Assembly (NCBI GenBank): GCA_039917855.1
Contig: JBDSIR010000146.1
Span: 2,047-66,046 of the forward strand
Length of the DNA stretch: 64,000 bases
From: Gemmatimonadales bacterium
Lineage (GTDB): Bacteria; Gemmatimonadota; Gemmatimonadetes; Gemmatimonadales; GWC2-71-9
Direction: 5' to 3'
The notes below the pieces were generated by a model. That model ran no database searches, had not been told where the DNA came from, and worked only from the letters and a program-made list of their open reading frames with translations. Numbering within the stretch: position 1 is the stretch's first letter; each line of letters starts with the position of its first letter. Positions 3,099 to 63,200 of this stretch are shown here, piece by piece. A program made the position numbers and the translations under genes.

Positions 3099-3171
3099 CG
3101 CGAAGTGCGAAGTGCGGGGTGCAAATTGAAAGGCACAGCCTGTAGCCTGTTGGCTGTCGGCTGTCGGCTGG
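3099..3171. repeat. Solo GTGCGAA-type array followed by a GGCTGTC-type hairpin
   Basis: cgcgaagtgcgaagtgcggggtgcaaa (3099-3125) starts right after the kinase stop. It is followed by cacagcctgtagcctgt-tggctgtcggctgtcggctgg (3134-3171). Confidence 0.8.
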
Positions 3172-3217
3172 AGGCTTTGGGGACCGCGGTCAGGCCCCAG
3201 TTGATTTATTGGGGCGG

Positions 3218-4156
3218 CTAGGGGGTGGGGGCCGTCGGCGTCCAGAACGCCTCGAAGTTCTCCCTGCCGTTGCTCAGCACGACGTGGGGGTCGCTGTTAT
3301 CGGCGCCCGCAAGCCAGAGGTCCCCGGTGCCGTAGAGAAGCCGCGTGCCATCAGGGGACAAGGTGGGCGGACGGTTCCCTCGGGCACTTCCGAGGAGGTC
3401 ATACCGGGAGGTCGCAAGTTCCAACCGGCCTATCACCCAGTCGTTCCCGCTGACGTCGAGAAGGAACAATGACTGGCCGTCGGGAGACCAGGAGGGGAGG
3501 TACCCCGTAAAGCCCGCCGTGCTATCCACTACCACCGCCTCGTCGCCGGTGGCGAGCATCTTCGTCACGACCCAGCGGATCGCAGTGTGGTGGACGGGCT
3601 CATAGACCTGACGGATGAACGCGATCCGTTCGCCATCTGGAGACCAGTTTCCCCCCCAAGCACTGACCCCATCGGGGAAGGTCAGGCGTTGCAATCCTGA
3701 CCCGTTCGACCGGATGCGGTAGAGCTGCTTATCAGCCGAAGGCGTGGCCTGATAGTCAAATAGGATCCAGTCATCAGCCAGAGCCCATTTGGGATTCGTC
3801 GCGCGTACGCCAGCTGGGAGTACCACCTTCCTCAACCCCTCCCCCGAGGCATCGACCAGAAAGAGCTCCCACCAATCCTCGAAGACCACCGTCCGTCCGT
3901 CAGGCGAGACGGAGGGGCTCTCAGGCCAGTGCAAGTGACCGAGGAGGGGCCGCGGATCGGTGCCGTCCGTTGCCATGGTCCACAACGCCGCGCTTGCTGT
4001 GTAGTGGGAATCGGGATGGATGCTGGTGAAGATGATCCGATCGAACAATGGTGGTCCGGAATACCCGTCCGGACCCGTGGCTCCGCCCTCTCCACGGCAC
4101 CCGAGGGCGACGAGGATCGCGAGCGACACGGAGGTGAGGCGGATCACCAGTCTCAT
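3218..4156 (-). CDS. TolB-like WD40/PD40 beta-propeller lipoprotein
   Basis: ORF 3218-4219 trimmed to MRLVIRLTSVSLAILVALGC (lipobox-like). It has repeated SPDG motifs (SPDGRTVVF, SPDGERIAF, SPDGQSLFL, SPDGTRLLY). Confidence 0.75.
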   Translation of the reverse strand: MRLVIRLTSVSLAILVALGCRGEGGATGPDGYSGPPLFDRIIFTSIHPDSHYTASAALWTMATDGTDPRPLLGHLHWPESPSVSPDGRTVVFEDWWELFLVDASGEGLRKVVLPAGVRATNPKWALADDWILFDYQATPSADKQLYRIRSNGSGLQRLTFPDGVSAWGGNWSPDGERIAFIRQVYEPVHHTAIRWVVTKMLATGDEAVVVDSTAGFTGYLPSWSPDGQSLFLLDVSGNDWVIGRLELATSRYDLLGSARGNRPPTLSPDGTRLLYGTGDLWLAGADNSDPHVVLSNGRENFEAFWTPTAPTP

Positions 4157-5307: not shown

Positions 5308-5532
5308 TCAGGCCCCCTCTTTGTTTTTCGGCTTGGCGAACCGCAGGATCACCCCGATGATGGCAAAAATGAATGCGGCCAGGATCATCCGGTCATCGTG
5401 CTGCAGCATGCCGGTAAGGCCAAGAGTGAGCGCCGCCATGAGGATGCCGAGGCGGAGCATCTGATAGCTGGGCAGCCATCTGCGCCTGGGAACGGCCGGT
5501 TGGATCTCTTGGGGTCGTTGGTCGTTGGTCAT
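5308..5532 (-). CDS. Small membrane protein (hypothetical)
   Basis: Hydrophobic core LRLGILMAALTLGLTGML..ILAAFIFAIIGVILRF. The first 7 codons (MTNDQRP) lie in a repeat arm; alternative ATG at 5460. Confidence 0.4.
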   Translation of the reverse strand: MTNDQRPQEIQPAVPRRRWLPSYQMLRLGILMAALTLGLTGMLQHDDRMILAAFIFAIIGVILRFAKPKNKEGA

Positions 5533-5617
5533 TGGTCGTGAACGTGGGAGGGTCGGCGATCGCCATCACGGATCTACTGGACATGGGCCAACAACCAACG
5601 ACCAGCGACCAATGACC
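5513..5617. repeat. Heptamer-array hairpin, GGTCGTT type
   Basis: Left arm ggtcgttggtcgttggtcattggtcgtg (5513-5540). Right arm ccaacaaccaacgaccagcgaccaatgacc (5588-5617). Confidence 0.9.
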
Positions 5618-6366
5618 TATTTCTTGAGGAAGGCGCTGATCGCGGTCCGGAAATCGGGGGTCGCTCGGCTCATCGCGTTGATGCGGGCGCCGAGCCTGAT
5701 GGCGTCATCGAAGGGGAGCCCGTCCTGGGCGTAGCAGAGCTGCTTCGTCAGGGCGTACGCGGTGAGTGAGACGCCGGTCAGCTGGTTCACGAGGTGCGAA
5801 GTGCGAGGTGCGAAGTCCGGGGTGCGGATGACCTCGGTCACCAACCCAAGGGCCTGGGCCTCAGCCGCTGAGAGGAGGCGGCCGGTGGCGGTGAGCTCAA
5901 GCGCTCGCTTCTCGCCGACCTGGCGCACCAGCATCGCCATCACCATCGCGGGGACGAAGCCGCGCTGGATCTCGGGGTAGCCGAACTGGGCCGTGTCGGC
6001 GGCCAGCACGAGGTCACAGGCGGTGGCGAGGCCGCATCCGCCCGCGAGTGCCCTCCCCTGCACCACTGCGACGACCGGCTTGGGGAGCGCGCGGAGCCCC
6101 TGGAACAGGGCGCCCAACCGCAGCGCGCTCTGCTCGTTGTCGGCGGGATCCTTGTCGGCCGAGGCGAGGAGCTCGTCGAGGTCGGCGCCGGCGCAGAAGT
6201 CCTTCCCCGCCCCCTTGATGACCAGCACCCGAACGGCGGGGTCGTGGTCGGCGCGGGCGACGCCCTCGTGCAGCGCTTCGATGAGCGCCGACGACAGCGC
6301 GTTCCGCTTGTCGGGGCGGTTCAGAGTGAGCGTGAGAATGCCAGCGTTGAGATCGGTTTGAAGCAT
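5617..6366 (-). CDS. Enoyl-CoA hydratase/isomerase (crotonase) family, methylglutaconyl-/isohexenylglutaconyl-CoA hydratase-like
   Basis: ORF trimmed to MLQTDLNAGILTLTLNRPDKRNALS. Has VIKGAGKDFCAGADL and GYPEIQRGFVP. Contains the repeat-encoded PDFAPRTSH segment. Confidence 0.9.
   Translation of the reverse strand: MLQTDLNAGILTLTLNRPDKRNALSSALIEALHEGVARADHDPAVRVLVIKGAGKDFCAGADLDELLASADKDPADNEQSALRLGALFQGLRALPKPVVAVVQGRALAGGCGLATACDLVLAADTAQFGYPEIQRGFVPAMVMAMLVRQVGEKRALELTATGRLLSAAEAQALGLVTEVIRTPDFAPRTSHLVNQLTGVSLTAYALTKQLCYAQDGLPFDDAIRLGARINAMSRATPDFRTAISAFLKK
5794..5822. repeat. Solo GTGCGAA-type array inside the enoyl-CoA hydratase CDS
   Basis: A 29-mer gtgcgaagtgcgaggtgcgaagtccgggg, identical to 1020-1048. 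It encodes PDFAPRTSH on the minus strand. Confidence 0.9.
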
Positions 6367-6385
6367 CGGGTTCGTCGTGGTTCCC

Positions 6386-6441
6386 GGGTGAAGGGTCGAG
6401 GGTCGAGGGTGCATCACCCTCCACCCTCCACCCTTAACCCT
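6386..6441. repeat. Heptamer-array hairpin, GAGGGTC type
   Basis: gggtgaagggtcgagggtcgagggtg-ca-tcaccctccaccctccacccttaaccctt. A tight hairpin containing the TAA stop of the upstream gene. Confidence 0.9.
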
Positions 6442-6841
6442 TCGCCTGCTTGGCCTGGGTCGGGAGCGATCTCAAGATCGCCGCCGGGACGGGGATCCGC
6501 ATCCGGAGGAGGGCCGTGGAATAGACCTTTCCCTGCGCATCGGTCTTGAGCGAGATGGTGCCCCCACCATCGAGCGCGCCGTGGAGGAGGAAGTTGAGCG
6601 CCCACAGGTTGGGGAGCTCGAAGCGTTCCACTCCGCTCACCATCCCCTTGAAATGCGCCTTCACGCGCGCCAGCGTGACTTCCTTCCGGATGAGCTCGTA
6701 CCACTCCGGCTGGAGCGCGATCAGCCCGACATTGGCGGTGTCGCCCTTGTCTCCGCTCCGGGCATGGGCAAGCCACCGAAGCTGCACCTGGCGGGCCTGT
6801 GGGCCAGTGGGCCGGTGGGCCTTCTTCCGAGCGCTAGGCAT
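6434..6841 (-). CDS. AtuA C-terminal-domain-like small protein (partner of DUF1446/AtuA)
   Basis: Has [32 protein letters not shown], as in the C-terminal region of long AtuA proteins. The ATG at 6841 overlaps the AtuA stop. The start is uncertain because the track ORF begins at 6862. Confidence 0.65.
6793..6822. repeat. Octamer array GGGCCNGT inside a CDS (AtuA small partner N-terminus)
   Basis: gggcctgtgggccagtgggccggtgggcc. It encodes AHRPTGPQA on the minus strand. Confidence 0.8.
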
Positions 6842-8207
6842 TGAGAACCTCGACGTGGACATGAGGTTCCACCACGGTCCGGTCGATCAATGCCGGCCAG
6901 TACGCCACGATCTCCTCTACCGCCGGGCGGCCACCGGCAAACCCGGTCACGCTCGGCGGGCCTGTGAGGACCAGGGGTGCGATCTCCCGGCTGAACCGCT
7001 CCACCGCCTTCTTGTCGTTGCTCCGCACCCCCACCCTCAGCTGCACCTCCGCTTCGCGGCCAGTGGGCCGGTCGGCCAGCGGGCCATGCGTCGCGTTCAC
7101 GCCGACAAATTCCGTCAGGATGGTCTCGAACTCGAGCCCGAGGTCCTTGAGCCGCTGGCGAAGGATCTTGTCCGCGGCTTTCGCCTTGTCGTACGCTTCG
7201 GGCCAGCTGTACACCAGCGTCCCGACCGCCTTCCAGCCATAGTGATAGGCGATCGAGACCTTGAGCTTGTCGGTGCGCGGCCCCCCGCGGATGCCGGAGA
7301 CGGCCACCCGGTCCTTCCCCGCCTGCTTGAGCCGGATCGAGGTGAAGTCGGCGACGCCGTCGGGAGTGATGTAGTTGTGGGGGTCGCCCATCTCGTACAC
7401 CAGCTGTTCGCTCACCGAGGCCACACTCACCACGCCGCCGGTGTTCGAGTGCTTGGTGACCACGAAGCTCCCGTCGGGTGCGACCTCGACGATCGGAAAG
7501 CCGGGGTCGGCCAGCCCTTTCACCTTCCGCCAGTCCTTCAGGAGGTTGCCCCCCGAGGCCTGGGCGCCGCACTCGATGATATGCCCGGCGATCGTCCCGG
7601 CGGCCATCTTGTCCCAGTCGTCCCTCCCCCAACCGTGCTCGTGCACGAGGGGACCCAGCGTGAGGCCGGTATCGGTGACTCGGCCTGTGATGACCAGATC
7701 GGCGCCGCGGCCCAAGGCCTCGACCACCGGCGCCATCCCGATATAGGCGTTGGCCGAGACCACCTGGTCACGGATGTCGCTCAGAGGACGGCCGGTATCC
7801 ATGTCGCGCATCTCGTGGCCGGCGGCCAGGAGTTCGTCGAGCCGCGGCAGGATGTCGTCCCCGGAGACGAGAGCGACCTTGACCTGCGCCGAGAGGCCGA
7901 GCTTCCGCGCCGCCCCGATGACCGCCTCGGCGCAGGCGCGTGGATTGACCCCGCCGGCGTTCGAGATGACCCGGAACCGCTGCGACGCGAGATCGGGGAG
8001 GATCCGTTCCATCAGCGGCACGAAGTCGCGCGCATAGCCGTGATCCGGGTCGCGCGACTTCTGCTTCTGCATGATGGACATGGTCACCTCGGCGAGGTAG
8101 TCCATCATCAGGTAATCGATCGGGCCGCCCCGGACCTGACGGACCGGCGCTTCGAGCCAGTCCCCCCAGAATCCCTGCCCGGCGGCGATGCGGACGGTCT
8201 TGGACAT
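6834..8207 (-). CDS. Acyclic terpene utilisation AtuA-family protein (DUF1446)
   Basis: 457 aa: [42 protein letters not shown], the pattern I recognise as AtuA/DUF1446. Its ATG overlaps the peptidase stop (ATGA). Confidence 0.85.
7057..7088. repeat. Octamer array (C/G)GGCCNGN inside the AtuA CDS
   Basis: cggccagtgggccggtcggccagcgggccatg. It encodes [10 protein letters not shown] on the minus strand. Confidence 0.75.
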
Positions 8208-18074: not shown

Positions 18075-18300
18075 GGCCCGCGAAGCGGCAGCGACACTAC
18101 GCCTGCTGTCATCCTGAGGGCGCTTCAGCGCCAGAAGGATCTCCGGGTCGCTTGTCGTGGTACTTCGAGGCCGTGATGCTGATCGGCAGCGATTCCAAGC
18201 ATGGGCTCCGCGATCACCGCTCCGAACCAGCACGACGATCCTGGCATCCCAATCATGCCGGCCGGAGATCCTTCGGGGCCTGAAGGCCCCTCAGGATGAC
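18075..18300. mobile_element. MITE-like element, GTCATCCTGAGG family, copy 2
   Basis: ggcccgcgaagcggcagcgac..gtcatcctgagggcgcttcagcgccagaaggatctcc on the left and ggagatccttcggggcctgaaggcccctcaggatgac on the right (ends at 18300). Confidence 0.7.
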
Positions 18301-18342
18301 AGCGCGCGTGATGGGTACGGCCGCCCGGGACGGGCGGCCCTA

Positions 18343-26469: not shown

Positions 26470-26485
26470 TCGGTGCTCCTGATCT

Positions 26486-26555
26486 GGTGACCAGTGACCA
26501 GTGACCCGTGACCGGGCCGACTGGTGCGATCTTCCCTCATAGGCCCGGTCACCGG

Positions 26556-26573
<18 letters not shown>
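26486..26573. repeat. Heptamer-array hairpin, GTGACCR type
   Basis: Left arm ggtgaccagtgaccagtgacccgtgaccgggcc, 24-nt spacer, right arm ggcccggtcaccggttaccggtcaccggtcac. The right arm holds the last aspS codons and its TAA stop. Confidence 0.9.
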
Positions 26574-28343
<1,770 letters not shown>

Positions 28344-39970: not shown

Positions 39971-40103
39971 GTGACGGCCCGTGAGAAGTGACCGGTGACC
40001 CGTGACCGGGCCCTGAACGCACGTCGCCGCGAGGTGGCAAAACTAGTGGCGGCACCACCCTATCGCAACCGAGCCAACATCAGGCCCGGTCACCACTTAC
40101 CGG

Positions 40104-40114
<11 letters not shown>
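39971..40114. repeat. Heptamer-array hairpin, GTGACCR type
   Basis: Left arm gtgacggcccgtgagaagtgaccggtgacccgtgaccgggcc, 69-nt spacer, right arm ggcccggtcaccacttaccggtcaccggtcac. The right arm contains the ftsB stop. Confidence 0.9.
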
Positions 40115-41795
<1,681 letters not shown>

Positions 41796-43506: not shown

Positions 43507-45128
43507 GGTTCCACGGCCCCGCGGCGAAAGCGCACCAGCCCGCGCGAGGTAGCGACCCAGAGCCAGTCGGCCTCCACACTCACGTCCCACGCCTCGCCCG
43601 GAAGCGCGTCACCCACGGCGAGGATCCGCTGCACGGGGCCACCAAGGCGGGCAAAGCCGACACCGCGCGATCCGGCGATCCAGACCCCCTCGCGACCGTC
43701 GGCGAGGGCACGCCCTCGTCCCAGTTGGTCCGAAGGATCGGGGCCTGCCGTCCAGGCACCGGTGCGGGGATCTCGCCAGAGGAGCGAGTGGTCGGTGAGA
43801 GCGACAAGGGTGTCGCCGTGCCAGAGCAGCGCCGGGACCGGTGAGCGCAGCACGCCGAGGGCCTCCCACCCGGGGGCCTGGCGGAGATCGATCGCGCCGG
43901 GGAGGGCGGCGAAAAGTCCGGTGGGCGTGCCGACCCAGGTGGTATCTCCGGCGATCGCGAGCGAGTATGCCGGCGCCGCGTAGCCGGGAGCGATGCGGAC
44001 CACGCCGCTGTCGGTGAGCTCGGCGACCCCCGCGGCGGTGCCGAAGATGAGCCGTCCCCGCCGCGCTGCGATCGCGAGGATCCGGCGATCGGCGAGACCA
44101 TCCTGTTCGGTGAGCCAGCGGACCCGCTCACCGGTGCGGGTGAGCGCGAGCACGCCCTGATCGGTGCCGAGCCAGAGAAGCGAATCGACCACGCGCAGGG
44201 CACGCACCTGGCGGAAGGGCTGACCGAAGACCTGGTCACCGAAGTACCACTTCGTTCCGTCGATCCCATCGGGCACCTCGACCAGTGCGGCCCCACCGGC
44301 GAAGGAGCGGTCGGTGACCGCCCACGCTCCGCCGGGGACGGCGAAGACCGCGCCGACCTCTTCGCCGGGAAGTCCCCAAGGGCGGGGTTCGGGAGAAACG
44401 CTGCCAAATGGCAGCCACAACAGCCCCGACCCGTCGGTGCCGAGCCACCAGCCGCTCTGATCGGACGCGGGGGCGGCGGCGCGGAGCCGCACGGCACGGA
44501 GCCCCGGCCCCATCAGTGTCCCCGAGATCGCGCCGCCGAGCTGGGGGTTGGCGCGTGCGGCATCCTCGACCGTGGTGGCGCGGATGAGGTCGGACCCCCG
44601 GGGCGGCTCGGTGGCCGGGATCGCGATCCCCATTCCCCGGGTGGCCACGACCCACCCACTCGGCGTCCGCAAGTAGAGTCCATCCGCAGGGCGGCTCCGA
44701 TCGACCGCCGCCACGAGGACCGCGCCCCCCGCGGATCCTTGATCCCAGAGGTCGAGCACCGGGTCGTACCGGAGCCATCCGGAGCCGGTCACGATCCAGA
44801 GCGACTGGTCGAGCGGATCGACCAGCGAGCCGCGCGCCTGCTCCAGGGCGCCCTGCCCCGGTGCGTCGAACGGTCCTTGCCACTCGCGCCGGACCTGATC
44901 GCGGACGAGGACCTGGCCGGCGCTCACGACGTAGAGGCGTTCGAAGCTGGAGGCGACGGCGTAGATGTGAAGCATCTCGCGTAGGACGACGCGGTCCTCG
45001 GTGCGCCAACGTGTTTGGGCGCGCACAGGAGGAGGGACGAGAAGCCAACACACGAGGGTCATCCCGAGCAGAGCGAGGGATCTACCCAGCGCTGATCGAC
45101 GACGGATCCCACGATCCGATCGATGCAT
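43503..45128 (-). CDS. Secreted beta-propeller protein (two-component-regulator-propeller-like repeats)
   Basis: Repeats WIVTGSGWLRY, WWLGTDGSGLLWL, LWLGTDQGVLAL, TWVGTPTGLFA, VWIAGSRGVGFA, LWVATSRGLVRF. The first 24 codons lie in a 100-bp TIR element; alternative ATG at 45062. Confidence 0.7.
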   Translation of the reverse strand: MHRSDRGIRRRSALGRSLALLGMTLVCWLLVPPPVRAQTRWRTEDRVVLREMLHIYAVASSFERLYVVSAGQVLVRDQVRREWQGPFDAPGQGALEQARGSLVDPLDQSLWIVTGSGWLRYDPVLDLWDQGSAGGAVLVAAVDRSRPADGLYLRTPSGWVVATRGMGIAIPATEPPRGSDLIRATTVEDAARANPQLGGAISGTLMGPGLRAVRLRAAAPASDQSGWWLGTDGSGLLWLPFGSVSPEPRPWGLPGEEVGAVFAVPGGAWAVTDRSFAGGAALVEVPDGIDGTKWYFGDQVFGQPFRQVRALRVVDSLLWLGTDQGVLALTRTGERVRWLTEQDGLADRRILAIAARRGRLIFGTAAGVAELTDSGVVRIAPGYAAPAYSLAIAGDTTWVGTPTGLFAALPGAIDLRQAPGWEALGVLRSPVPALLWHGDTLVALTDHSLLWRDPRTGAWTAGPDPSDQLGRGRALADGREGVWIAGSRGVGFARLGGPVQRILAVGDALPGEAWDVSVEADWLWVATSRGLVRFRRGAVEP

Positions 45129-45157
45129 GCTAGATCCCTCGCTCCGCTCGGGATGAC
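45058..45157. mobile_element. 100-bp MITE-like element, GTCATCCCGAGC family
   Basis: Ends gtcatcccgagcagagcgagggatcta (45058-45084) and ctagatccctcgctccgctcgggatgac (45130-45157). Confidence 0.8.
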
Positions 45158-46736: not shown

Positions 46737-46744
46737 GTTGGAAA

Positions 46745-46859
46745 GGTAAGCGGTGAGCGGTAAGAGGTGAGCGGGCCGTGCGGTCGAGGTGGTGCCTGGT
46801 GAATAGGCGGGGGACCCGACTTCAGGCCCCCCGCTCACCGCTTACCGCTCACCGCTCAC
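46745..46859. repeat. Heptamer-array hairpin, GGTRAGC type
   Basis: Left arm ggtaagcggtgagcggtaagaggtgagcgggcc, 47-nt spacer, right arm ggccccccgctcaccgcttaccgctcaccgctcac. The right arm contains the stop of the zinc-ribbon ORF. Confidence 0.9.
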
Positions 46860-47050
46860 GCAGGTGTAGTACCAGCGATCTTCCCATAGGAGACCTCCCC
46901 CTTGTGGATCCGCATATGGAATCCGCAGGCGGGATTGGTGCAGGCCCACGCCTTGAACTTGAGCGAAGAGCCTTCGGGGCCGTAGTCCGACAGCGGCACC
47001 AGCACTCCGTCCTCACACTTCACGCACTCCGGGAACTCGCGATTATCCAT
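46856..47050 (-). CDS. Small zinc-ribbon protein (hypothetical)
   Basis: 64 aa: CVKC..(27 aa)..CTNPAC, four Cys in two pairs. Strong GGAGGGGGG lies upstream of the ATG. Confidence 0.6.
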   Translation of the reverse strand: MDNREFPECVKCEDGVLVPLSDYGPEGSSLKFKAWACTNPACGFHMRIHKGEVSYGKIAGTTPA

Positions 47051-50327: not shown

Positions 50328-50356
50328 GGATGCGTCCTGCTGCGGAAGTGTGTCAG

Positions 50357-50443
50357 GGTGACCAGTGACCGGTGACCAGTGACCGGGCCTCAAGAGAGGA
50401 GCTCACCAACAGGCCCGGTCACTGGTTACTGGTTACTGCTCAC
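50357..50443. repeat. Heptamer-array hairpin, GTGACCR type
   Basis: Left arm ggtgaccagtgaccggtgaccagtgaccgggcc, 22-nt spacer, right arm ggcccggtcactggttactggttactgctcac. The right arm edge holds the hbd stop. Confidence 0.9.
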
Positions 50444-51303
50444 TTCGAATATTCGTAAAAGCCCCGCCCCGTCTTCCGTCCCAGCTGCCCCGCCGCGACC
50501 ATCCGGCGGAGGAGCGGACAGGGACGGTACTTGTCGTCGCCCAATCCCTTGTGCAGCACTTCGAGGATCGCGAGGCAGACGTCGAGCCCGATCAGGTCGG
50601 CCAGCGCCAGCGGGCCCATCGGATGGGCCATCCCCAGCTTCATCACCGTATCGATCGACTCGGCGGTGGCCACGCCTTCCATCAGGCAGTATACCGCCTC
50701 GTTGACCATCGGCATCAGGATCCGATTGGCCACGAAGCCGGGGTAGTCGTTCACCTCGACCGGCGTCTTGCCCAATGCCTTGCACCACTCCATCACCTTG
50801 GCCGTCGTGGCATCGCTGGTGCGCTGGCCGCGGATGATCTCCACCAGCTGCATGACCGGGACCGGATTCATGAAATGCATCCCGATCACCAGCTCGGGCC
50901 GCTTGGTCCTGGCGGCGATCTCGGTGATCGAGATCGAGCTGGTGTTGGTCGCGAGTATCGTCCCCGGCGGGCAGATCGCGTCCAGACCCTCGAAGACCTT
51001 GAACTTCACGAGCGGGTTCTCGCTCGCCGCCTCGACCACCAGCGCCGCGTCCTTCACCGCCGTGAGGTCGGTCCCGGCAGTGACGCGCTTCAGCGTCGCC
51101 GCAGCGTCGGCCTCGGAGAGGGTCCCCTTCTTCACCACCCGGGCGAGCGACACCTTGATGGCCTCGAGCCCCTTGTGGAGTGCGGCCTGTTGCACGTCGA
51201 CGAGCAGGACGTCGTTCCCCTGGGCCGCGAAGACCTGGGCGATCCCGTTGCCCATTGTCCCTGCACCAATGACCGCGATTCGAGTCATCATCTGTCCTTG
51301 CAA
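50440..51303 (-). CDS. hbd: 3-hydroxybutyryl-CoA dehydrogenase
   Basis: 287 aa: [40 protein letters not shown]. Confidence 0.92.
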
Positions 51304-51309
51304 TTGAAT

Positions 51310-51568
51310 GGCTGCTGGCTACTGGCTATTGGCTGCTTCATCCTGCGAACTGGCACTGGCGCGATCGGCCAGAAGCCAGGAGCCAGGAGCCTTCGAGTTC
51401 GATGTCCACCGGAACAGCAGCACCGCCTTGCGAGTATCACGGTTGCAAAGGGCTGCCGGCTACTGGCTGTTGACTGCTCCGTGCTGCGGACTGGCACTGT
51501 CGCGATCGGCCAGAAGCCAGGAGCCAGGGGCTTTCGGGTTCGATGTCCACCGGAACAGCAGCACCGCC
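51310..51568. repeat. Two tandem copies (period about 140 bp) of a GGCTACT-type array hairpin plus tail
   Basis: Copy 1 at 51310-51427 and copy 2 at 51450-51568. Each is ggctgctggctactggct.. / ..ggccagaagccaggagccagg, followed by ttcg.gttcgatgtccaccggaacagcagcaccgcc. Confidence 0.9.
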
Positions 51569-54160: not shown

Positions 54161-54196
54161 GCGGGTAGGCGGGTGGGCGGGTAGGCGGGTAGGCGG
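54161..54196. repeat. Solo octamer array, GCGGGTAG type (G-quadruplex-capable)
   Basis: gcgggtaggcgggtgggcgggtaggcgggtaggcgg lies upstream of the thiolase start. It has five GGG runs. Confidence 0.85.
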
Positions 54197-54197
54197 T

Positions 54198-54295
54198 CGC
54201 CGAGGGCGGGGCGCCCCCGCCCCGCCGATGGGTCGAGGCAGAGCTCCGTCAACGGCGGCGCGAGGTAGCGCCGCCCTCGGCCGGCATCCCAACAA
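54198..54295. repeat. 98-bp direct repeat, copy A
   Basis: cgccgagggcggggcgcccccgccccgccgatgggtcgaggcagagctccgtcaacggcggcgcgaggtagcgccgccctcggccggcatcccaacaa. 97/98 identical to 55467-55564. Confidence 0.9.
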
Positions 54296-55375: not shown

Positions 55376-55466
55376 GGGTGGTCAGGTTCGAGTACTCCGG
55401 AGATGCCCTTGCGCCTGAAATCAGCACACACCCGCGGCGCAGCCGCGGCGGGTGTTGCTGCGGACC

Positions 55467-55564
55467 CGCCGAGGGCGGGGCGCCCCCGCCCCGCCGATGG
55501 GTCGAGGCAGAGCTCCGTCAACGGCGGCGCGAGGTCGCGCCGCCCTCGGCCGGCATCCCAACAA
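55467..55564. repeat. 98-bp direct repeat, copy B
   Basis: One mismatch (gaggtCgcg versus gaggtAgcg) relative to copy A. Confidence 0.9.
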
Positions 55565-55588: not shown

Positions 55589-57509
55589 ACGGCATCAACG
55601 CCCTGCTCTTCTCCTCACCCGCCACCTTCGCCACGAACTCCGCCACCGGCATCACCGTCTGCTTGGTCCCCGCCCCGCGCACCCTGACCGCCACCGCACC
55701 CGAGTCGGCCTCGCGCTGTCCCACCACCGCCATGTACGGCACTTTCAGGACTTCGCCATCGCGGATCCGGTAGTTGAGGGTCTCGTTCGAGTCATCGACC
55801 GTGACCCGGAGCCCCGCATCGCGCAGTTGCTTGGCCACCGCATGCGCCGCCGCGGCCTGCGCGTCGCTGATCGGGAGCACCCGTACCTGCTCGGGCGCGA
55901 GCCAGACCGGGAACGCCCCGGCGAAGTGCTCGATCAGGATCGCGATGAAGCGCTCGAACGAGCCGCTCACCGCCCGATGGATGACGACCGGCCGGTGGGG
56001 ATGGTTGTCCTCCCCCACATACGTCAGGGCGAACCGCTCCGGCGCGTTGAAGTCGAGCTGGATGGTGCCGAGTTGCCAGGCTCGCCCGATCGCGTCGTAG
56101 ACGTCGAAGTCGATCTTGGGGCCGTAGAACGCCCCGTCTCCCGGCTTGAGTTCGTATGGCAGCCCGGTCGCCTCGAGCGCAGCCTTCAAGCTCGCCTCGG
56201 CACGATCCCAGAGCGCGTCATCACCGATACGGACCTCCGGCCGGGTGGCGAACTTGAGCTTCGCCTCCAGCCCAAAGGTCTTGTAGTACGCCAGGATGAA
56301 GTCGGCGATCCGCTTCACCTCGGCGGGGATCTGCGACTCCATCAGGTAGATATGACAGTCGTCCTGGGAGAACTGCCGCACGCGCGTGAGGCCCGAGAGC
56401 GCCCCGCTCACCTCGTTCCGATGCAGCACATCGTAGGTGCTGTAGCGGGTCGGGAGCTCGCGGTAGCTGTGCCGCCGCGACGCGAAAAAGAGGTGGTGCG
56501 ACGGGCAGTTCATCGGCTTCAGGGACATGTCGTGCTCCCCGGTCTCCTTGTCGAGGACGAGGAACATGTTCTCCTGGTACTTCCCCCAATGCCCTGACTG
56601 CTCCCAGAGCGCTTTGTGGTACAGCAGCGGGGTCCGGACCTCCTGATACCCTTCGCGCTCCAGCTCGCGCAGATAGGCGTTGATGGTGTTGTAGATCGCC
56701 GTGCCGCGCGCGGTCCAGAAGGCGGCCCCCGGCGCCACCGGGAAGAAGTGGAAGAGATCGAGTTCCTTCCCCACCCGGCGATGGTCCCTCTTCTTCGACT
56801 CCTCGAGGCGGTGGGTATACGCCTCCAGGTCCTCCTTCTTGAACCACGCCGTACCATAGATGCGCTGCAGCATCTGCCGCCGAGAATCCCCCCGCCAGTA
56901 CGCCCCCGCGATGCTCAGCAGCTTGAAATGCTTCAGCCGCGACGTGCTCGGCACATGCGGTCCCCGGCAGAGGTCGACGAACGGGCCGTCGGTGTAGACA
57001 GTGATGGTCTCGTCGGCGCCGAGGTCGTCGATCCGCTCGAGCTTGAGGGGATCGTCCTTGAAACGCTTCTTTGCCTCCGCCCGATCCACCACCTCGCGCG
57101 TGAACGGGTAGTCCGCCTTGGCCACCTCGACCATTTTCGCCTCGATCTGTGCGAGATCCTCAGGCGTGAAGGGGCGATCGAGCTGGAAGTCGTAGTAGAA
57201 CCCGTCCTCGATCGGCGGCCCGAATCCGATGCCGGCATTGGGGAAGAGCTCGCGCACGGCCGTGGCCAGGATATGGGCGGCGGAGTGGCGGAGCACCTCG
57301 AGAGCGTCGGGGTCGCGGTCGGTCAGCAGCGATACGGTGGCGCCATCCTCGAGCTCGCGGCCGAGGTCGCGGATCTGGCCGTTGACGCGGGCGGCGAGCG
57401 CTGCCTTGGCGAGGCCGGGCCCGATGGCCTGGGCCAGGTCGCGGGCGGTGCTGCCAGCGGGAAGTTCGCGGACACTCCCGTCGGGGAGGGTGATGCGGAG
57501 CTGGCTCAC
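55587..57509 (-). CDS. thrS: Threonyl-tRNA synthetase
   Basis: 640 aa, GTG start. Has a TGS domain (ITLPDGSVRE), HSAAHILA, FRDE-type class II motifs, and a C-terminal anticodon-binding domain. Confidence 0.95.
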   Translation of the reverse strand: MSQLRITLPDGSVRELPAGSTARDLAQAIGPGLAKAALAARVNGQIRDLGRELEDGATVSLLTDRDPDALEVLRHSAAHILATAVRELFPNAGIGFGPPIEDGFYYDFQLDRPFTPEDLAQIEAKMVEVAKADYPFTREVVDRAEAKKRFKDDPLKLERIDDLGADETITVYTDGPFVDLCRGPHVPSTSRLKHFKLLSIAGAYWRGDSRRQMLQRIYGTAWFKKEDLEAYTHRLEESKKRDHRRVGKELDLFHFFPVAPGAAFWTARGTAIYNTINAYLRELEREGYQEVRTPLLYHKALWEQSGHWGKYQENMFLVLDKETGEHDMSLKPMNCPSHHLFFASRRHSYRELPTRYSTYDVLHRNEVSGALSGLTRVRQFSQDDCHIYLMESQIPAEVKRIADFILAYYKTFGLEAKLKFATRPEVRIGDDALWDRAEASLKAALEATGLPYELKPGDGAFYGPKIDFDVYDAIGRAWQLGTIQLDFNAPERFALTYVGEDNHPHRPVVIHRAVSGSFERFIAILIEHFAGAFPVWLAPEQVRVLPISDAQAAAAHAVAKQLRDAGLRVTVDDSNETLNYRIRDGEVLKVPYMAVVGQREADSGAVAVRVRGAGTKQTVMPVAEFVAKVAGEEKSRALMP

Positions 57510-57658
57510 GGGGTCGGCAGCGCTCCACCGATGGCGGCGGCCGCGTCGGCGTAGAGAAAGTAGAACACGACACCGAGCGCCACGATGGCGGTCGGAAGCG
57601 ACCAGCGGACGAGGTCGAAGAAGGTGACGTACTCGCGTTCGTCGCTCATCGGGGTCAT
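57506..57658 (-). CDS. Small membrane protein (50 aa) translationally coupled to thrS
   Basis: Below the ORF-track size cutoff. My translation is MTPMSDEREYVTFFDLVRWSLPTAIVALGVVFYFLYADAAAAIGGALPTP. Almost all codons end in G/C. Its TGA overlaps the thrS GTG (GTGA). Confidence 0.5.
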   Translation of the reverse strand: MTPMSDEREYVTFFDLVRWSLPTAIVALGVVFYFLYADAAAAIGGALPTP

Positions 57659-57754
57659 GCGCTCGAGTCGTGGAGAATGGTGCCTGCGCCGTGCGGCAGG
57701 CTCATGTTAACTTAATCGCAATCTTGCACTTTCGGCATTTCTGAGGAGCGTACG

Positions 57755-58177
57755 GTGCGTCGAACGGAACGGCAGGGCGAGTTGGCGGTCTGGGCCGCGA
57801 TGGGGCTCGGGGTCGGGCTTGTGGCGGGGTTCGCCCTGGCCGAGGCAGTCGGCGCGGTGGACCTGAAGCGCCTGGCGCGCGCCGTGGCACGGATCGGCGC
57901 CGACCACAGCCCGGCCACGCTGACGCCGGATCAGGCGGCGCGCGCCGCGGCGCTGGCCCTCGGCCAGACCCCCGGGCTCGCCGGTCTGGAGCTCGAGACC
58001 CGGGCCCTCGGCCCCGGTCGGGTGGAGCTGCTCGGGTGGGTTCCCGACCGACGCAGCCGGGCGCTGGCCGAACGCACCGTGGCGGGACTCGACGGGATCA
58101 CCGCCGTGGTCAACCGGCTCCTGGTGGAGCGGGAAGACAGCAACGCGCCGCTCACCCTCGCGGACCAGTCGGCATGA
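57755..58177 (+). CDS. BON-domain membrane protein
   Basis: 140 aa, GTG start after GAGGAG. Has a TM helix and VELLGWVPDRRSRALAERTVAGLDGITAVVNRL. Its stop overlaps the valS ATG (ATGA). Confidence 0.75.
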   Translation: MRRTERQGELAVWAAMGLGVGLVAGFALAEAVGAVDLKRLARAVARIGADHSPATLTPDQAARAAALALGQTPGLAGLELETRALGPGRVELLGWVPDRRSRALAERTVAGLDGITAVVNRLLVEREDSNAPLTLADQSA

Positions 58178-60909
58178 GCGACGAACTGAGCCCGACCTAC
58201 TCCCCCGCCGGCCTCGAAGTCGGCATCTACCGGCAGTGGGAGAAGGCCGGGGTCTTCGCGCCCTCGGGTCATGGGTCGAGGGTCATGGGTCGTGGGGCTT
58301 TGGAGGGTCGCAACGCCTCCCACGACTCACGACCCACGACCCAAGACCCGTTCGTGACCATGATGCCCCCGCCGAACGTGACGGCGAGCCTCCACATGGG
58401 GCACGGGCTCAACAATACTCTCCAGGACGTCCTCACCCGCTGGGCCCGGATGCGGGGGCGCCCGGCGCTCTGGCTCCCCGGCACCGACCACGCCGGCATC
58501 GCCACGCAGAACGTGGTCGAGCGGCTGGTGGCCAAGGAGGGCCAGACCCGCTTCGATCTTGGGCGCGGGCCCTTCCTCGAGCGGATGCACGCCTACGTCG
58601 ACGTGACCAAGGAGACCATCCTCGGCCAGCTTCGGAGCATCGGCTCGAGCGCCGACTGGAGCCGCACGTACTACACCTTCGACGAGCACTACTCCGAGGC
58701 CGTGCGCGAGGTGTTCGTGCGGCTGTACGAGAAGGGCCTCATCTACCGCGGCAAGTACATCATCAACTGGTGCCCCCGCTGCCTCACCGCCCTTTCTAAT
58801 GAAGAGGCGGAAAAGGAGGAGCGGGACGGGAAGATCTGGCACCTGCGCTATCCCCTGGCCGATGGCTCAGGGTCGCTGGTCGTGGCCACCACTCGGCCGG
58901 AGACGATGCTGGGCGACACCGGCGTGGCGGTGCATCCTGAGGACGAGCGCTACCAGGCGCTCATCGGGAAGATGCTGGCGCTGCCGCTCACCGACCGGCG
59001 GATCCCCATCGTCGGCGACGAGGCGGTCGATCCGGAGTTCGGGAGCGGCGCGGTGAAGGTCACGCCGGCGCATGACCAGACCGACTTCGAGATCGGCAAG
59101 CGGCACGACCTGGCCCAGATCGACGTGATGACCCCGGAGGCGCGGATGGCGGAGACCGTGCCGCTGCGCTTCCAGGGCCTGGACCGGTTCGACGCGCGAA
59201 AGAAGGTCGTGGCGGAGTTCGAGGCGCTGGGACTCCTGGTCAAGATCGATGACCACCGCCACGCCGTGGGCCACTGTTACCGCTGCGGCACCGTGGTGGA
59301 ACCGCGCCTGTCGGATCAGTGGTTCGTGAAGATGGCGCCCCTCGCCAAGCCGGCGCTCAAGGCGTATGCCGACAAGAAGGTGAAGTTCGTCCCGGAACGC
59401 TGGGGCGACATCTATACCCAGTGGCTGGAGGGGATCCGCGACTGGTGCATCAGCCGCCAGCTCTGGTGGGGGCATCGCATCCCGGTCTGGTACTGCGATG
59501 CGTGTGGTTCGAAGCACGCCAGCCGCACCGACCTGGTCACCTGCCCCAAGTGCCGCGGCCTGTTGCGTCAGGACGAGGACGTGCTCGACACCTGGTTCTC
59601 CAGCTGGCTCGTGCCGATGGCCTCCCTCGGCTGGCCCGAGGAGACCGAGGACCTCAAGCGGTTCTATCCCGGCACGGTGCTCATCACCGCCCCCGAGATC
59701 CTGTTCTTCTGGGTGGCGCGGATGATCATGGCGGGGCTCGAGTTCCGCGGGAAGGTGCCGTTCCACACCGTGTATCTGCACGGCACCGTGCGCGACACCC
59801 AGCATCGCAAGATGTCGAAGTCTTTGGGCAACGGGATCGATCCGCTCGACGTGATCGAGAAGTACGGCGCCGACGCGCTGCGCTACACGGTGATCTCGGG
59901 GATGGCGGTCGGGACCGACCTGATCCTCGATCCGAAGGATCTGGAGATCTCGTTCGCGCCGGGGCGGAACTTCGCCAACAAGCTCTGGAATGCCGCGCGC
60001 TTCCTGTTGAGCAACCTGCACGGCGCTCCCCGTCCCTTGGCCGGCGCGTATCGAGAAGTGATCCGGAGGGAGGAACTCACCCTCGCCGACCGGTGGATCA
60101 TCGCCCGGTGCGATGCCGCGGTGCGCGAGTCGGCCGACGCGCTGGAGAAGTTCCGCCTCAACGATGCGGCGAGTGCGGCCTATCACTTCATCTGGAGCGA
60201 CTTCGCCGACTGGTACGTCGAGGCGATCAAGCCCCGGCTCTACGGCGACGTGCCCGGGGGTAGCATCGCGCGCGCGGTGGCCTACCGGGTCTTCGACACC
60301 GCCCTCCGGCTGTTGCACCCGGTGATGCCCTTCATCACCGAGGCGATCTGGCAGAAGCTCCCCGGGCGCACCGAGGGGGAGCTTCTCGCGCGCGCGCGCT
60401 GGCCCGAAGCCGATCAGCGTGCCAGTGACGACGGCGCCCTCGCAGAATTCGCCCTGGTGCAGGAGGTCGTGACGGCGCTCCGGCAGATCCGCGCCGAGAA
60501 TGGCGTGGAGCCCGGGAAACAGATCGACGCGACCGTCGTCGCCGCCACGCCGGCGATGCGCTCCGCGCTCACCCTCGAGGATGCCACGGTGCGCAGGCTC
60601 GCCAAAGTGGCGAAGCTTACCGTCGGGCCTGCTCCGACCGGGGCCGCCGCGAGCGCGGTCCTCTCCGACGGCTCAACGGTGATCGTTCCCCTCGGCGGGA
60701 TGGTCGACTTGGCCAAGGAATGCGCCAAGCTCGCCGCCGAACGCGACCGGCTGGCGGGGATGGTCGCGAACCAGGAGAAGAAGCTCAGCAATGAGCAGTT
60801 CGTGGCGCGCGCCCCGGCCGCCGTGATCGAAGGGGAACGGAAGAAGCTCGCGGAGTGGACGGAACATGTGAGCAAGTTGAATGATCGAAGGCGGGCGCTC
60901 GGGTGCTGA
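58174..60909 (+). CDS. valS: Valyl-tRNA synthetase
   Basis: ORF trimmed to MSDELSPTYSP. Has PPPNVTASLHMGH, KMSKSLGN, and a C-terminal coiled coil. Contains an 84-bp repeat insertion. Confidence 0.95.
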   Translation: MSDELSPTYSPAGLEVGIYRQWEKAGVFAPSGHGSRVMGRGALEGRNASHDSRPTTQDPFVTMMPPPNVTASLHMGHGLNNTLQDVLTRWARMRGRPALWLPGTDHAGIATQNVVERLVAKEGQTRFDLGRGPFLERMHAYVDVTKETILGQLRSIGSSADWSRTYYTFDEHYSEAVREVFVRLYEKGLIYRGKYIINWCPRCLTALSNEEAEKEERDGKIWHLRYPLADGSGSLVVATTRPETMLGDTGVAVHPEDERYQALIGKMLALPLTDRRIPIVGDEAVDPEFGSGAVKVTPAHDQTDFEIGKRHDLAQIDVMTPEARMAETVPLRFQGLDRFDARKKVVAEFEALGLLVKIDDHRHAVGHCYRCGTVVEPRLSDQWFVKMAPLAKPALKAYADKKVKFVPERWGDIYTQWLEGIRDWCISRQLWWGHRIPVWYCDACGSKHASRTDLVTCPKCRGLLRQDEDVLDTWFSSWLVPMASLGWPEETEDLKRFYPGTVLITAPEILFFWVARMIMAGLEFRGKVPFHTVYLHGTVRDTQHRKMSKSLGNGIDPLDVIEKYGADALRYTVISGMAVGTDLILDPKDLEISFAPGRNFANKLWNAARFLLSNLHGAPRPLAGAYREVIRREELTLADRWIIARCDAAVRESADALEKFRLNDAASAAYHFIWSDFADWYVEAIKPRLYGDVPGGSIARAVAYRVFDTALRLLHPVMPFITEAIWQKLPGRTEGELLARARWPEADQRASDDGALAEFALVQEVVTALRQIRAENGVEPGKQIDATVVAATPAMRSALTLEDATVRRLAKVAKLTVGPAPTGAAASAVLSDGSTVIVPLGGMVDLAKECAKLAAERDRLAGMVANQEKKLSNEQFVARAPAAVIEGERKKLAEWTEHVSKLNDRRRALGC
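58266..58349. repeat. Heptamer-array hairpin, GGGTCRT type, in frame inside valS
   Basis: Left arm gggtcatgggtcgagggtcatgggtcgtgggg, 21-nt spacer, right arm cccacgactcacgacccacgacccaagaccc. Total 84 bp, which is 28 codons. Confidence 0.9.
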
Positions 60910-60910
60910 G

Positions 60911-61110
60911 CCCTCTCCCCCCGACCCCCTCTCACTGTCGGGAGAGGGGGAGCGCCACGGAACAGCTCCCCTCCCCCGACAAGGGGAACACCACGGTTCA
61001 ACTCTCCTCCCCCGACAGGGGGAACACCACGGTTCAACTCCCCTCCCCCGACAGGGGGAACACCACGAAACAGCTTCCCTCCCCCGACAGGGGGAGGGGC
61101 CGGGGGAGGG
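60911..61110. repeat. Tandem array, 36-bp period, about 4.5 units, of the CCCCTC..GAGGGG hairpin family
   Basis: Units at 60966-61001, 61002-61037 and 61038-61073 (ctcccctcccccgacagggggaacaccacggttcaa), flanked by partial and divergent units. Confidence 0.9.
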
Positions 61111-62417: not shown

Positions 62418-62992
62418 TGGCCCAGCGAGCGGGGGTGCCGCCACTGCCGGGGGCGCGTCCAGCCGCGTTCTTGGACCGCGACGGGACCATCATCGAGGAT
62501 CCCGGCTACCTCGACCACCCCGAACAGGTCCAGCTCATCCCCGATGCAGCCTCCGCCATCCGTCGGCTCAATGAAGCGGGGTGGGTCGTCGTCGTCATCA
62601 CCAACCAGAGCGGCATCGCCCGCGGCTATTACACCGAGGCCGACTACGAGACGGTGCGCGCGCACGTCGACGAACTCCTGTCGCGCCAAGGGGCGCGCGT
62701 CGACGCGCACTATCACTGCCCCCATCATCCCAGCGTTTCGGCCTGCGAGTGCCGCAAGCCCGGGCTCAAGCACTTCCTCCACGCCATCGGCCGGTTCGGG
62801 ATCGATCCCGCGAAGAGCTGGTGCGTCGGCGACAAGGTGGGCGACGTCACTCCAGCGATCCGACTCGGCGCCCACGGCCTCCTGGTCCGCACCGGCGAAG
62901 GGGTCGCCAATCGGGTCGAGGCCGAACTGGCGGGGTTCGGCTCGGTGCCCGACCTCGCCGCCGCGGTGAGTCGGATGCTGGGGGGCGGGTAG
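62417..62992 (+). CDS. gmhB: D-glycero-beta-D-manno-heptose-1,7-bisphosphate 7-phosphatase (HAD-IIIA)
   Basis: 191 aa: FLDRDGTII, VVVITNQSGIARG, CPHHP..C.CRKP, VGDK. The stop TAG lies in the first unit of an octamer array. Confidence 0.85.
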   Translation: MAQRAGVPPLPGARPAAFLDRDGTIIEDPGYLDHPEQVQLIPDAASAIRRLNEAGWVVVVITNQSGIARGYYTEADYETVRAHVDELLSRQGARVDAHYHCPHHPSVSACECRKPGLKHFLHAIGRFGIDPAKSWCVGDKVGDVTPAIRLGAHGLLVRTGEGVANRVEAELAGFGSVPDLAAAVSRMLGGG

Positions 62993-63200
62993 GCGGGTAG
63001 GCGGGTAGGCGGGGGGAATGTCGATTCGGGATCAGGCCATAAGAGGTGTCATCCCGAGCAGAGCGAGGGATCTAGCTCGCTTCGACCGGGGCCTGGACGC
63101 ACCCTCAACGCTTCGCCGGGTAGATCCCTCGCTCTGCTCGGGATGACATTGGTCGCCCCCCGCTGGATGCCCACTCTACCCGCCTGACCGCCTTCCCCCC
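62984..63200. repeat. GCGGGTAG-type octamer array with a partial inverted copy, enclosing a 100-bp TIR element
   Basis: ggcgggtaggcgggtaggcgggtaggcgggggg at 62984-63015. The inverted ctacccgcctgaccgccttcccccc is at 63176-63200. Confidence 0.7.
63048..63147. mobile_element. 100-bp MITE-like element, GTCATCCCGAGC family
   Basis: Ends gtcatcccgagcagagcgagggatct (63048-63073) and tagatccctcgctctgctcgggatgac (63121-63147). Same length and ends as 45058-45157, but a different interior. Confidence 0.8.

Follow-up and report, generated by a model that had tools for sequence, protein, structure and literature searches.

How can a palindrome of tandem 7-nt units, repeat DNA of a non-coding type, become part of the reading frame of a presumably essential enzyme gene, and does it serve the gene in which it lies? 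The question is raised by the valS gene of a soil Gemmatimonadales bacterium, on a 64,000-nt stretch of contig JBDSIR010000146.1 (assembly GCA_039917855.1, positions 2,047 to 66,046 of the forward strand) that was analysed as a whole and is called the window in the following. An 84-nt element at 58266-58349, beginning 92 nt into the open reading frame (ORF), is an array hairpin, by which we mean about three to five tandem 7- or 8-nt units, a short spacer and an inverted array. An earlier note on this DNA had placed a palindromic repeat array in frame in valS, and this holds: the ORF is a bona fide valS, and neither a stop codon nor a frame break is found in it at the array. The element is probably a tolerated passenger from a genome-wide class of array hairpins that is translated within an unconstrained linker of the valyl-tRNA synthetase (ValRS).

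The hairpin in the valS reading frame

The host gene at 58174-60909 on the plus strand (911 codons and a stop) is a valine--tRNA ligase gene by full-length family match and by motifs. In an NCBIfam profile search, residues 8-904 match the valS equivalog NF004349 with 1124.9 bits at a cut-off of 704, the ValRS of T. thermophilus (1gax) matches the ORF with E = 6e-230, and both the PPPN and the HxGH motif are present in PPPNVTASLHMGH at residues 65-77. The same 911-aa protein (P0122) is annotated at NCBI as MEO6068648.1 and MEO7332716.1, from a Gemmatimonadales metagenome-assembled genome. The gene is presumed to be single-copy and essential.

The left arm of the element (58266-58296, plus strand) consists of the four 7-nt units GGGTCAT, GGGTCGA, GGGTCAT and GGGTCGT and the partial unit GGG, and it is followed by the spacer GCTTTGGAGGGTCGCAACGCCT (58297-58318), which contains one further degenerate unit (GGGTCG) and the outer bases of which lengthen the stem in the predicted fold. 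The right arm (58319-58349) is the inverted array, with CCC followed by ACGACTC, ACGACCC, ACGACCC and AAGACCC. The four GGGTCRT units and the inverted array were thus described correctly in the earlier note, but the spacer measures 22 nt and not 21, and although the length of 84 nt does equal 28 codons, the element is not aligned to them: it begins with base 3 of codon 31, ends with base 2 of codon 59 and includes 27 full codons, GHGSRVMGRGALEGRNASHDSRPTTQD. A repeat finder delimits arms of 32 nt (58265-58296 and 58319-58350) that are 88% complementary with 22 nt between them, and by Tandem Repeats Finder each arm has a period of 7 and 4.4 copies. The region 58256-58359 folds as RNA with -66 kcal/mol (z = -6.8, with none of 200 shuffled sequences as stable) and as DNA with -34.7 kcal/mol (z = -5.3), and the pattern GGGTCRTGGGTCRNGGGTC, with up to two mismatches allowed, occurs 8 times in the window against an expected 0.13. 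Arms, folds, pattern counts and periodicity together place arrays and hairpin far beyond chance.

Such a palindrome could in principle be an artefact that arose in assembly or sequencing, such as a chimeric inverted duplication, as assemblers can create palindromes and the source is a metagenome-assembled genome. This is extremely improbable, since the arms are imperfect, the contig is at least 64 kb long and has the site in its middle, two NCBI accessions contain the identical protein, and this site is occupied by related but non-identical hairpins in independent assemblies from NCBI, JGI and ENA.

The element lies between two conserved parts of the protein. Codons 1-28 (MSDELSPTYSPAGLEVGIYRQWEKAGVF, 58174-58257, plus strand) constitute an N-terminal helix segment that ends with YRQWEKAGVF, and they are followed by a hypervariable loop of codons 29-59 (APSGHGSRVMGRGALEGRNASHDSRPTTQDP, 58258-58350), in which the element is contained. 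Directly 3' of this loop, the alignment with 1gax assigns codons 60-77 (FVTMMPPPNVTASLHMGH, 58351-58404) to the first Rossmann strand and the HIGH motif, and M64-N68 and H74-H77 are invariant alignment columns. As no stop and no frame break occur through the hairpin, read-through translation is the only simple reading, and the hairpin would be translated as part of ValRS, giving the tryptic peptides GALEGR and NASHDSRPTTQDPFVTMMPPPNVTASLHMGHGLNNTLQDVLTR across the loop. All three sense frames of the element are free of stops, whereas there is one stop in each antisense frame. In the loop, 0.71 of the codons have G or C at the third position, compared to 0.91 in the remainder of valS, which fits a sequence that has not been shaped by codon selection.

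Translation of ValRS might also start only after the hairpin, at the two in-frame ATG codons at 58360-58365, with the upstream 62 codons being a relic or a separate leader and the hairpin lying in 5' leader sequence outside the protein, and the database entries P0012, P0149 and P0157 are indeed called from MMPPPNV or later. Yet the upstream 28 codons are conserved in every lineage. Among 12 relatives, these codons have 40 variable sites, of which 24 fall on the third base, and pairwise codon differences are synonymous in 531 and non-synonymous in 264 cases, from which it follows that this segment is translated in the valS frame. Moreover, the family profile matches from residue 8 on, the frame is open and continuous, the upstream segment is a confidently predicted helix, and no promoter-like site is present upstream of Met63. 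A late start is thus very improbable.

The hairpin probably encodes an additional floppy, disordered loop that is rich in Gly, Arg, Ser, His, Pro and Thr. An AlphaFold2 model of the window ValRS, built on 62 homologues, has a mean predicted local distance difference test score (pLDDT) of 83 and TM-scores against 1gax of 0.79 (query length) and 0.84 (target length). In this model, residues 14-25 form a helix (block pLDDT about 85) and residues 60-63 a strand, and between them residues 33-55 are predicted as coil with pLDDT below 50. An intein or a mini-domain was considered and discarded, as the insert has only 27-31 residues, is of low complexity and is predicted as coil. Translational bypass between the TTC codons of Phe28 and Phe60 was weighed as well; a stop following the take-off codon is lacking, the ancestral linker would be lost by it, and both phenylalanines are conserved for structural reasons, so that its probability is practically nil.

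The same loop in related genomes

In the nearest orthologue without a hairpin (locus L088, protein P0007; loci and protein entries of relatives are given by such numbers), the loop consists of only nine residues, APRAEGRDP, encoded by 27 nt (GCGCCCCGGGCCGAGGGCCGCGACCCC), and the loop of P0008 has nine residues as well. The ValRS proteins of Gemmatimonadales at 65-70% identity mostly have 8-13 residues between helix and strand, many of them with the pattern xxRxxGRxP, and valS without a hairpin is the rule in Gemmatimonadota. The short loop that the earlier note had given for other ValRS is therefore ancestral, and codons have indeed been inserted in the window, but with 31 residues (93 nt) as compared to nine residues (27 nt) in L088, the net gain is 22 codons and not 28.

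This gain was not the one-off event that was initially envisaged. The window belongs to a clade with about 85% nucleotide identity and a star-like tree, in which L088/P0007 is basal, and about a dozen relatives in this clade have a hairpin at exactly the valS loop, mostly composed of other 7-nt units. The loops therein comprise 72 nt in L081 (four units GAGTCRT/GGGTCAT), 69 nt in L083 (GAGTCGC), 63 nt in L087 (GGTCGGT), 69 nt in L082 (CCSAGAG/GGCTCTC), 75 nt in L169 (GGGACGC), 54 nt in L001 and L085 (GGCCTCA), 54 nt in L084 (GGCCTCA/GGCCCCG), and 84 nt in L170, which has the GGCCTCA type with a 30-nt internal duplication. Decaying versions are found in L171 (57 nt) and L172 (51 nt), and L086 has a plain 9-bp hairpin in a 42-nt loop. 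The whole clade thus has a hypervariable hairpin locus at this position, where the relatives do not have similar-length loops without repeats but repetitive hairpins of varied length, and additional variants of the loop peptide are present inside 90% clusters. A scan of metagenomes for closer relatives gave only matches with at most 75% identity and no strain-level variants. All loop lengths, from 42 to 93 nt, are multiples of three, and 13 of 13 sequenced alleles are in frame.

The phenomenon extends beyond this clade. In L112, which belongs to a separate lineage with 66% identity, the valS loop is 81 nt long and contains an 8-mer array hairpin, GATGAGCG in four copies, with -52.8 kcal/mol and z = -6.8, whereas its relative L118 has no hairpin. 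In the clade of the P0014 cluster, of which only the proteins were compared, inserts of variable length are found at the loop, and their peptide arms (SRREQ ... PLPPA) appear to be what reverse-complementary codons would encode. The L111 valS loop (2501-3295) has a one-armed direct array, three to four copies of CGCGTCCT, with no inverted partner.

The two arms change together. Downstream of the loop, a 1950-nt stretch of valS has 88.5% identity between the loci L001 and L084, the loops of which differ at only 4 of 54 nt, in the form of two mirrored compensatory pairs (T20C/A43G and A22G/T41C). A different kind of change is seen between L081 and L170, which have 94.6% identity in this 1950-nt stretch and 96-97% in the sequence right up to the loop, but have different hairpin types, window-like in L081 and L001-like in L170, with the switch located exactly between ...GTGTTCG and TTCGT.... 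A long recombination tract was considered for this swap, and the flanks were found to be 95-100% identical; in the first 80 nt downstream, four of five differences co-segregate with the type of hairpin, a hint at short-patch recombination that is too weak for a verdict.

Does the hairpin then have a function for valS? One could imagine a selected cis-acting element that is conserved in structure and not in sequence, with the peptide as a by-product, which could adjust elongation, the stability of the mRNA or its processing by RNase III, or be a site in DNA or RNA to which a protein binds. This would explain why a hairpin recurs at precisely this loop, both in about a dozen relatives and in an independent lineage, and also the pairing that is preserved by mirrored substitutions, the very stable stem (-60 to -66 kcal/mol), and the lack of intragenic array hairpins in neighbouring genes throughout 772 kb of loci. 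On the other hand, valS is usually free of hairpins in Gemmatimonadota and is so even in the sister lineage L088, several relatives have decaying hairpins that fold no better than shuffled sequences (z = -1.1 in L083, -0.6 in L171 and -1.0 in L172), and identical architecture and turnover are common in intergenic DNA, so that no valS-specific role is needed. A search of Rfam over 57400-59000 at a permissive E-value gave only sub-threshold chance matches, and a scan of 57600-58700 with promoter and terminator consensus sequences found neither; as no T-run follows the hairpin, it is neither an attenuator nor an intrinsic terminator. A cis-acting element is thus distinctly improbable, and no evidence points to a function of the hairpin for valS.

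A G-quadruplex is not the conserved feature either. The sense arm fits the G3N4 quadruplex motif that had been noted before, with five tracts of three or more G and 4-nt loops, but such tracts are absent from the orthologous hairpins of L083, L082, L087 and L001 with their units GAGTCGC, CCSAGAG, GGTCGGT and GGCCTCA. The motif is therefore incidental, and the quadruplex was rejected as a selected feature.

Array hairpins between genes and the origin of the valS element

The valS element is one of about 14 array hairpins in the window, which are built from at least eight types of units (GGGTCRT, GTGACCR, GTGCGAA, GGTRAGC, TGGCTRC, GGCGGGTA, ATGGGCGG and GGGCCAGT). It is the only intragenic one among them, as the others that were inspected are intergenic or overlap gene ends: those at 1018-1199, 5510-5620 and 6385-6443 lie between genes, and the remainder is at ORF boundaries. 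In 772 kb of high-GC loci that were fetched around valS, intragenic array hairpins were again found only in valS, the sole other match, which lies upstream of a kinase gene, being a false positive.

The intergenic hairpin at 5510-5620, four units GGTCGTT/GGTCATT followed by the inverted array, has the unit closest to that of the valS element, and its spacer, like the valS spacer, has GGAGGGTCG, but the similarity is weak and at the level of the unit. In the fetched loci, no GGTCRTK arrays were detected when the exact pattern was searched for. The hairpin at 6385-6443 contains GGGTGAA, GGGTCGA and GGGTCGA opposite three copies of CACCCTC. Units of the GTGACCR family form array hairpins at 26483-26575 (at a gene boundary), 39981-40117 and 50356-50446, the latter with four copies between a dehydrogenase gene and a 3HCDH gene, and the orthologous site in L171 also has GTGACCR. 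An 8-mer array hairpin at 41675-41794 is composed of 4.8 copies of ATGGGCGG and three copies of ATCCGCCC, and the one at 46744-46861 of four copies of GGTAAGC/GGTGAGC and the inverted array; the GGTGAGC unit is also present in L002, a relative with 65% identity.

Between genes, orthologous sites show the same behaviour as the valS loop. Upstream of purN, where the window has an 8-mer array hairpin of GGCGGGTA units at 62977-63200 with a second palindromic repeat nested in its loop, GGCGGGTA/TACCCGCC units are found in the window, L081, L170, L085 and L169, GGCGCGTA-type units in L082, and GGCGCAGT/CTGCGCCC units in L086 and L171, and the final unit always fuses into the conserved flank CCGCCTATTTT. 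In the gap between purN and purH, the units are GACCGCC in the window, GGGTCGT/ACGACCC in L170 (where GGGTCGT was detected by blastn-short), CGACCC in L088 and GGTCGCA in L169, and all of these end at a conserved flank of the type GACCCCC-ATG. The same fusion with the flanks is seen in valS, where the outer half-units (CGGGTC...GACCCG) fall on the ancestral sequence CGGGCC...GACCCC that encodes AP...DP, and where, by comparison with the L088 loop, the final unit of the right arm has fused with the ancestral GAC CCx codons (Asp-Pro).

The recurrence of units raises the possibility of discrete mobile elements in several families, similar to MITEs (miniature transposable elements with inverted repeats) or REP sequences (extragenic palindromes of repetitive kind), that were inserted or replaced repeatedly at a permissive spot in valS. 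In line with this, GTGACCR occurs with a GGGCC junction at 26483, 39981, 50356 and in L171, GGTGAGC is shared by the window and L002, ACGACCC/GGGTCGT units lie between purN and purH in L170, the valS element resembles 5510-5620 in unit and spacer motif, and L081 and L170 have different cassettes in nearly identical flanks. However, comparison with the empty site reveals no target-site duplication, a GTAG or CGTC head is lacking, the outermost half-units match the ancestral flank in valS as well as upstream of purN, and the unit series GGGTCRT, GAGTCRT, GAGTCGC looks like gradual divergence. A transposase has not been identified either, although no systematic search for one was made. Such elements, which would overlap with the passenger explanation on the question of origin, are unlikely as the source of the valS hairpin. 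Since orthologous sites swap units and outer units merge with their flanks, growth and turnover in place are favoured, with a hairpin that belongs to its site and is not a fixed mobile sequence, and some dispersal is also likely because members of one unit family are found again at loci that are not linked and in more than one genome.

For a tolerated passenger, the course of events may have been as follows. The ancestral nine-residue loop would have acquired a hairpin after the split from the L088 lineage, whereupon units turned over and arrays may have grown and shrunk by slippage of units, while the complementarity of the arms would have been kept either by selection for pairing or by templated change from arm to arm, for which quasipalindrome template switching is an established mutational mechanism (PMC7202029). 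The mRNA would be read straight through, and the enzyme would tolerate the about 22 extra residues, presumably neutrally. With valS presumed to be single-copy and essential, only stop-free variants with lengths that are multiples of three would persist, a filter that is easily met because the sense orientation is stop-free in all frames. Purifying selection that keeps the element in frame is thus the best reading of its persistence.

Several observations weigh against this explanation. The multiple-of-three lengths are partly a matter of ascertainment, as the variants were found mainly by protein searches. The ValRS entries P0149, P0157 and P0012 begin after the loop although they are on long contigs; P0149 and P0157 have 840 aa, the calls of all three entries start at MGHGLNN or MMPPPNV, the contig of P0157 is 46 kb long, and frame breaks or mis-assembly within hairpins could account for these late starts. 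The recurrence of GTGACCR, GGTGAGC and GGCGGGTA argues for some copy-and-paste dispersal, and the recurrence of hairpins at one loop in at least two lineages, with neighbouring genes lacking them, could be due to a function. Because of the star-like tree of the clade, a single gain with turnover is inseparable from several gains.

Going beyond the passenger explanation, it may be tentatively proposed, though the odds are against it, that an as yet undescribed process in Gemmatimonadales builds and maintains site-resident array hairpins, including that in the valS loop, by amplification of a short local sequence into tandem units of 7-8 nt, mirroring of these onto an inverted arm and concerted turnover of both arms. 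Orthologous sites would then retain architecture and not sequence, and valS would be an instance of this within an essential ORF, where a strict filter for multiples of three would act on the hypervariable, disordered protein segment that results. The bolder version of this proposal would make the hairpin a structure-conserved regulatory element of valS, which is the cis-acting element weighed above.

Further repeats accompany those described so far. One-armed arrays, such as the one in the L111 valS loop and a direct array of five CGACCC(T/C) units upstream of purH in L088 (9195-9275), may represent array hairpins in the course of growth or decay. A one-armed array of four GTGCGAA units at 5789-5819 is in frame in an enoyl-CoA hydratase gene (minus strand, 5620-6366), where it encodes RTPDFAPRTSHL with the length unchanged relative to the solved homologue 1uiy, as if a variable helix had been overwritten. 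In a 457-aa ORF (6834-8207, minus strand), 3.6 copies of the 8-mer GGCCAGTG lie at 7058-7086, with a partner at 6793-6821 that is direct and not inverted, 265 nt away at the junction to the next gene. The palindrome nested upstream of purN is the dispersed TGTCATCCCGAGCAGAGCGAGGGATCTA with perfect 28-nt arms (63047-63148), relatives of which are found in the window at 45058-45157 and 18099-18309 and in L085 at about 7270-7310. At 51310-51568, a tandem duplication of 141 nt (1.8 copies, 90% matches) copies part of a TGGCTRC/GCCAGGA array hairpin. Two copies of the GC-rich hairpin GCCGAGGGCGGGGCGCCCCCGCCCCGCCGATG lie at 54199-54281 and 55465-55553 between a thiolase gene and thrS, the first one preceded by 4.5 copies of the 8-mer GCGGGTAG at 54161-54196.

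Around valS itself, the gene order thrS, a 47-aa ORF, a BON-domain ORF, valS and a Big_5 gene is kept in every relative examined. The TGA of the BON-domain ORF and the ATG of valS overlap as ATGA (58174-58177), which suggests translational coupling. Directly after the valS stop, a 36-nt tandem repeat (60945-61095, 4.2 copies, 87% matches), with the mini-hairpin CCCCCGACAGGGGG in every unit, occupies the leader or the 5' end of the next, Big_5-like gene.

Relation to known repeats and significance

The comparison that suggests itself first is that with Rickettsia palindromic elements (RPEs), which are described as elements of about 150 bp in defined families, each with a conserved peptide, in many Rickettsia genes (Ogata et al. 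2000, summarised in PMC10969869). Both are palindromic repeats in frame in a conserved housekeeping gene that would be read through to give a peptide compatible with the fold, and both also occur between genes. The valS element differs in that it is made of 7-nt tandem units, belongs to the phylum Gemmatimonadota, and affects only valS in the DNA examined. Orthologous copies have different units and different peptides, so that, with the sequence differing between orthologous sites, there is no conserved peptide and no sequence family. The parallel that the earlier note had drawn is thus apt for the behaviour and not for the membership: the valS element acts like an RPE but is not one.

The closest architecture is found in the convergent heptamer arrays of Xanthomonas. 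Repeats of GGGAATC in Xanthomonas and GGGGAYT in Nostoc have G3 tracts, which make a quadruplex motif, and a preference for about four units (Rehm et al. 2015, PMC4692102), and Xanthomonas has 70-75 convergent array pairs that are able to form stem-loops and are mostly intergenic, near ORF ends, with some over stop codons (PMC4692102). The tandem 7-nt unit with 4.4 copies per arm and the array on the opposite strand 22 nt away are alike. In contrast, coding DNA has fewer of the Xanthomonas repeats than expected, and one consensus unit is used per genome (PMC4692102), whereas many units coexist here and change between orthologous sites, most of them not being G-quadruplex formers, and the valS copy is in frame in an essential gene, a location that has not been reported for the Xanthomonas repeats.

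REP sequences and bacterial interspersed mosaic elements are single extragenic palindromes of 20-40 bp with a GTAG or CGTC head and a sequence that is conserved within the genome (PMC3733652). They resemble the array hairpins in being short and GC-rich, in their position at the ends of genes and in their abundance, with many copies in a genome, but the valS arms are intragenic 31-nt arrays of 7-mers, and GTAG, CTAC, CGTC and GACG are all absent from 58266-58349, for which reason this assignment was rejected. A MITE was rejected as well, as no flank is duplicated relative to the empty L088 site and the outer half-units overlap ancestral sequence. In contingency genes, simple sequence repeats in coding DNA have a unit with a length not divisible by three, lie near the 5' end of the ORF, and shift the frame upon gain or loss of units. 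The valS array shares the type of unit and the position near the 5' end, but its host is an essential housekeeping gene in which on-off switching would be lethal and not adaptive, the observed alleles are in frame, and there is an inverted copy. The direct tandem repeats of Borgs are described as rapidly evolving repeats in ORFs that add disordered protein segments (PMC9879509). Fast evolution, an apparent origin in place within ORFs and the addition of a disordered segment are common to both, whereas the 7-nt unit of valS passes through each of the three frames in turn and has an inverted array as its mirror image. A literature search for heptamer and inverted tandem arrays, including Gemmatimonadetes, Gemmatimonas and Gemmatimonadota as terms, found no description of the array-hairpin class.

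The valS hairpin is a clean natural case of repeat DNA of a non-coding type that resides in an essential enzyme gene. Because the unit has 7 nt, any slip by a single unit is a lethal frameshift, and despite this risk few parts of the gene change faster across relatives than the valS loop. The class to which it belongs is dense in these soil bacteria, with about 14 array hairpins per 64 kb, is apparently undescribed for Gemmatimonadota, and can mislead gene callers and assemblers. New is the clade-wide, hypervariable and structure-preserving hairpin within valS as a member of this dense class, and it offers a tractable system for several questions: how inverted arrays form and stay complementary, be it through selection or through templated mutation, how much foreign sequence the linker of a class I synthetase tolerates, and how selfish or structural repeats may seed new disordered segments in proteins.

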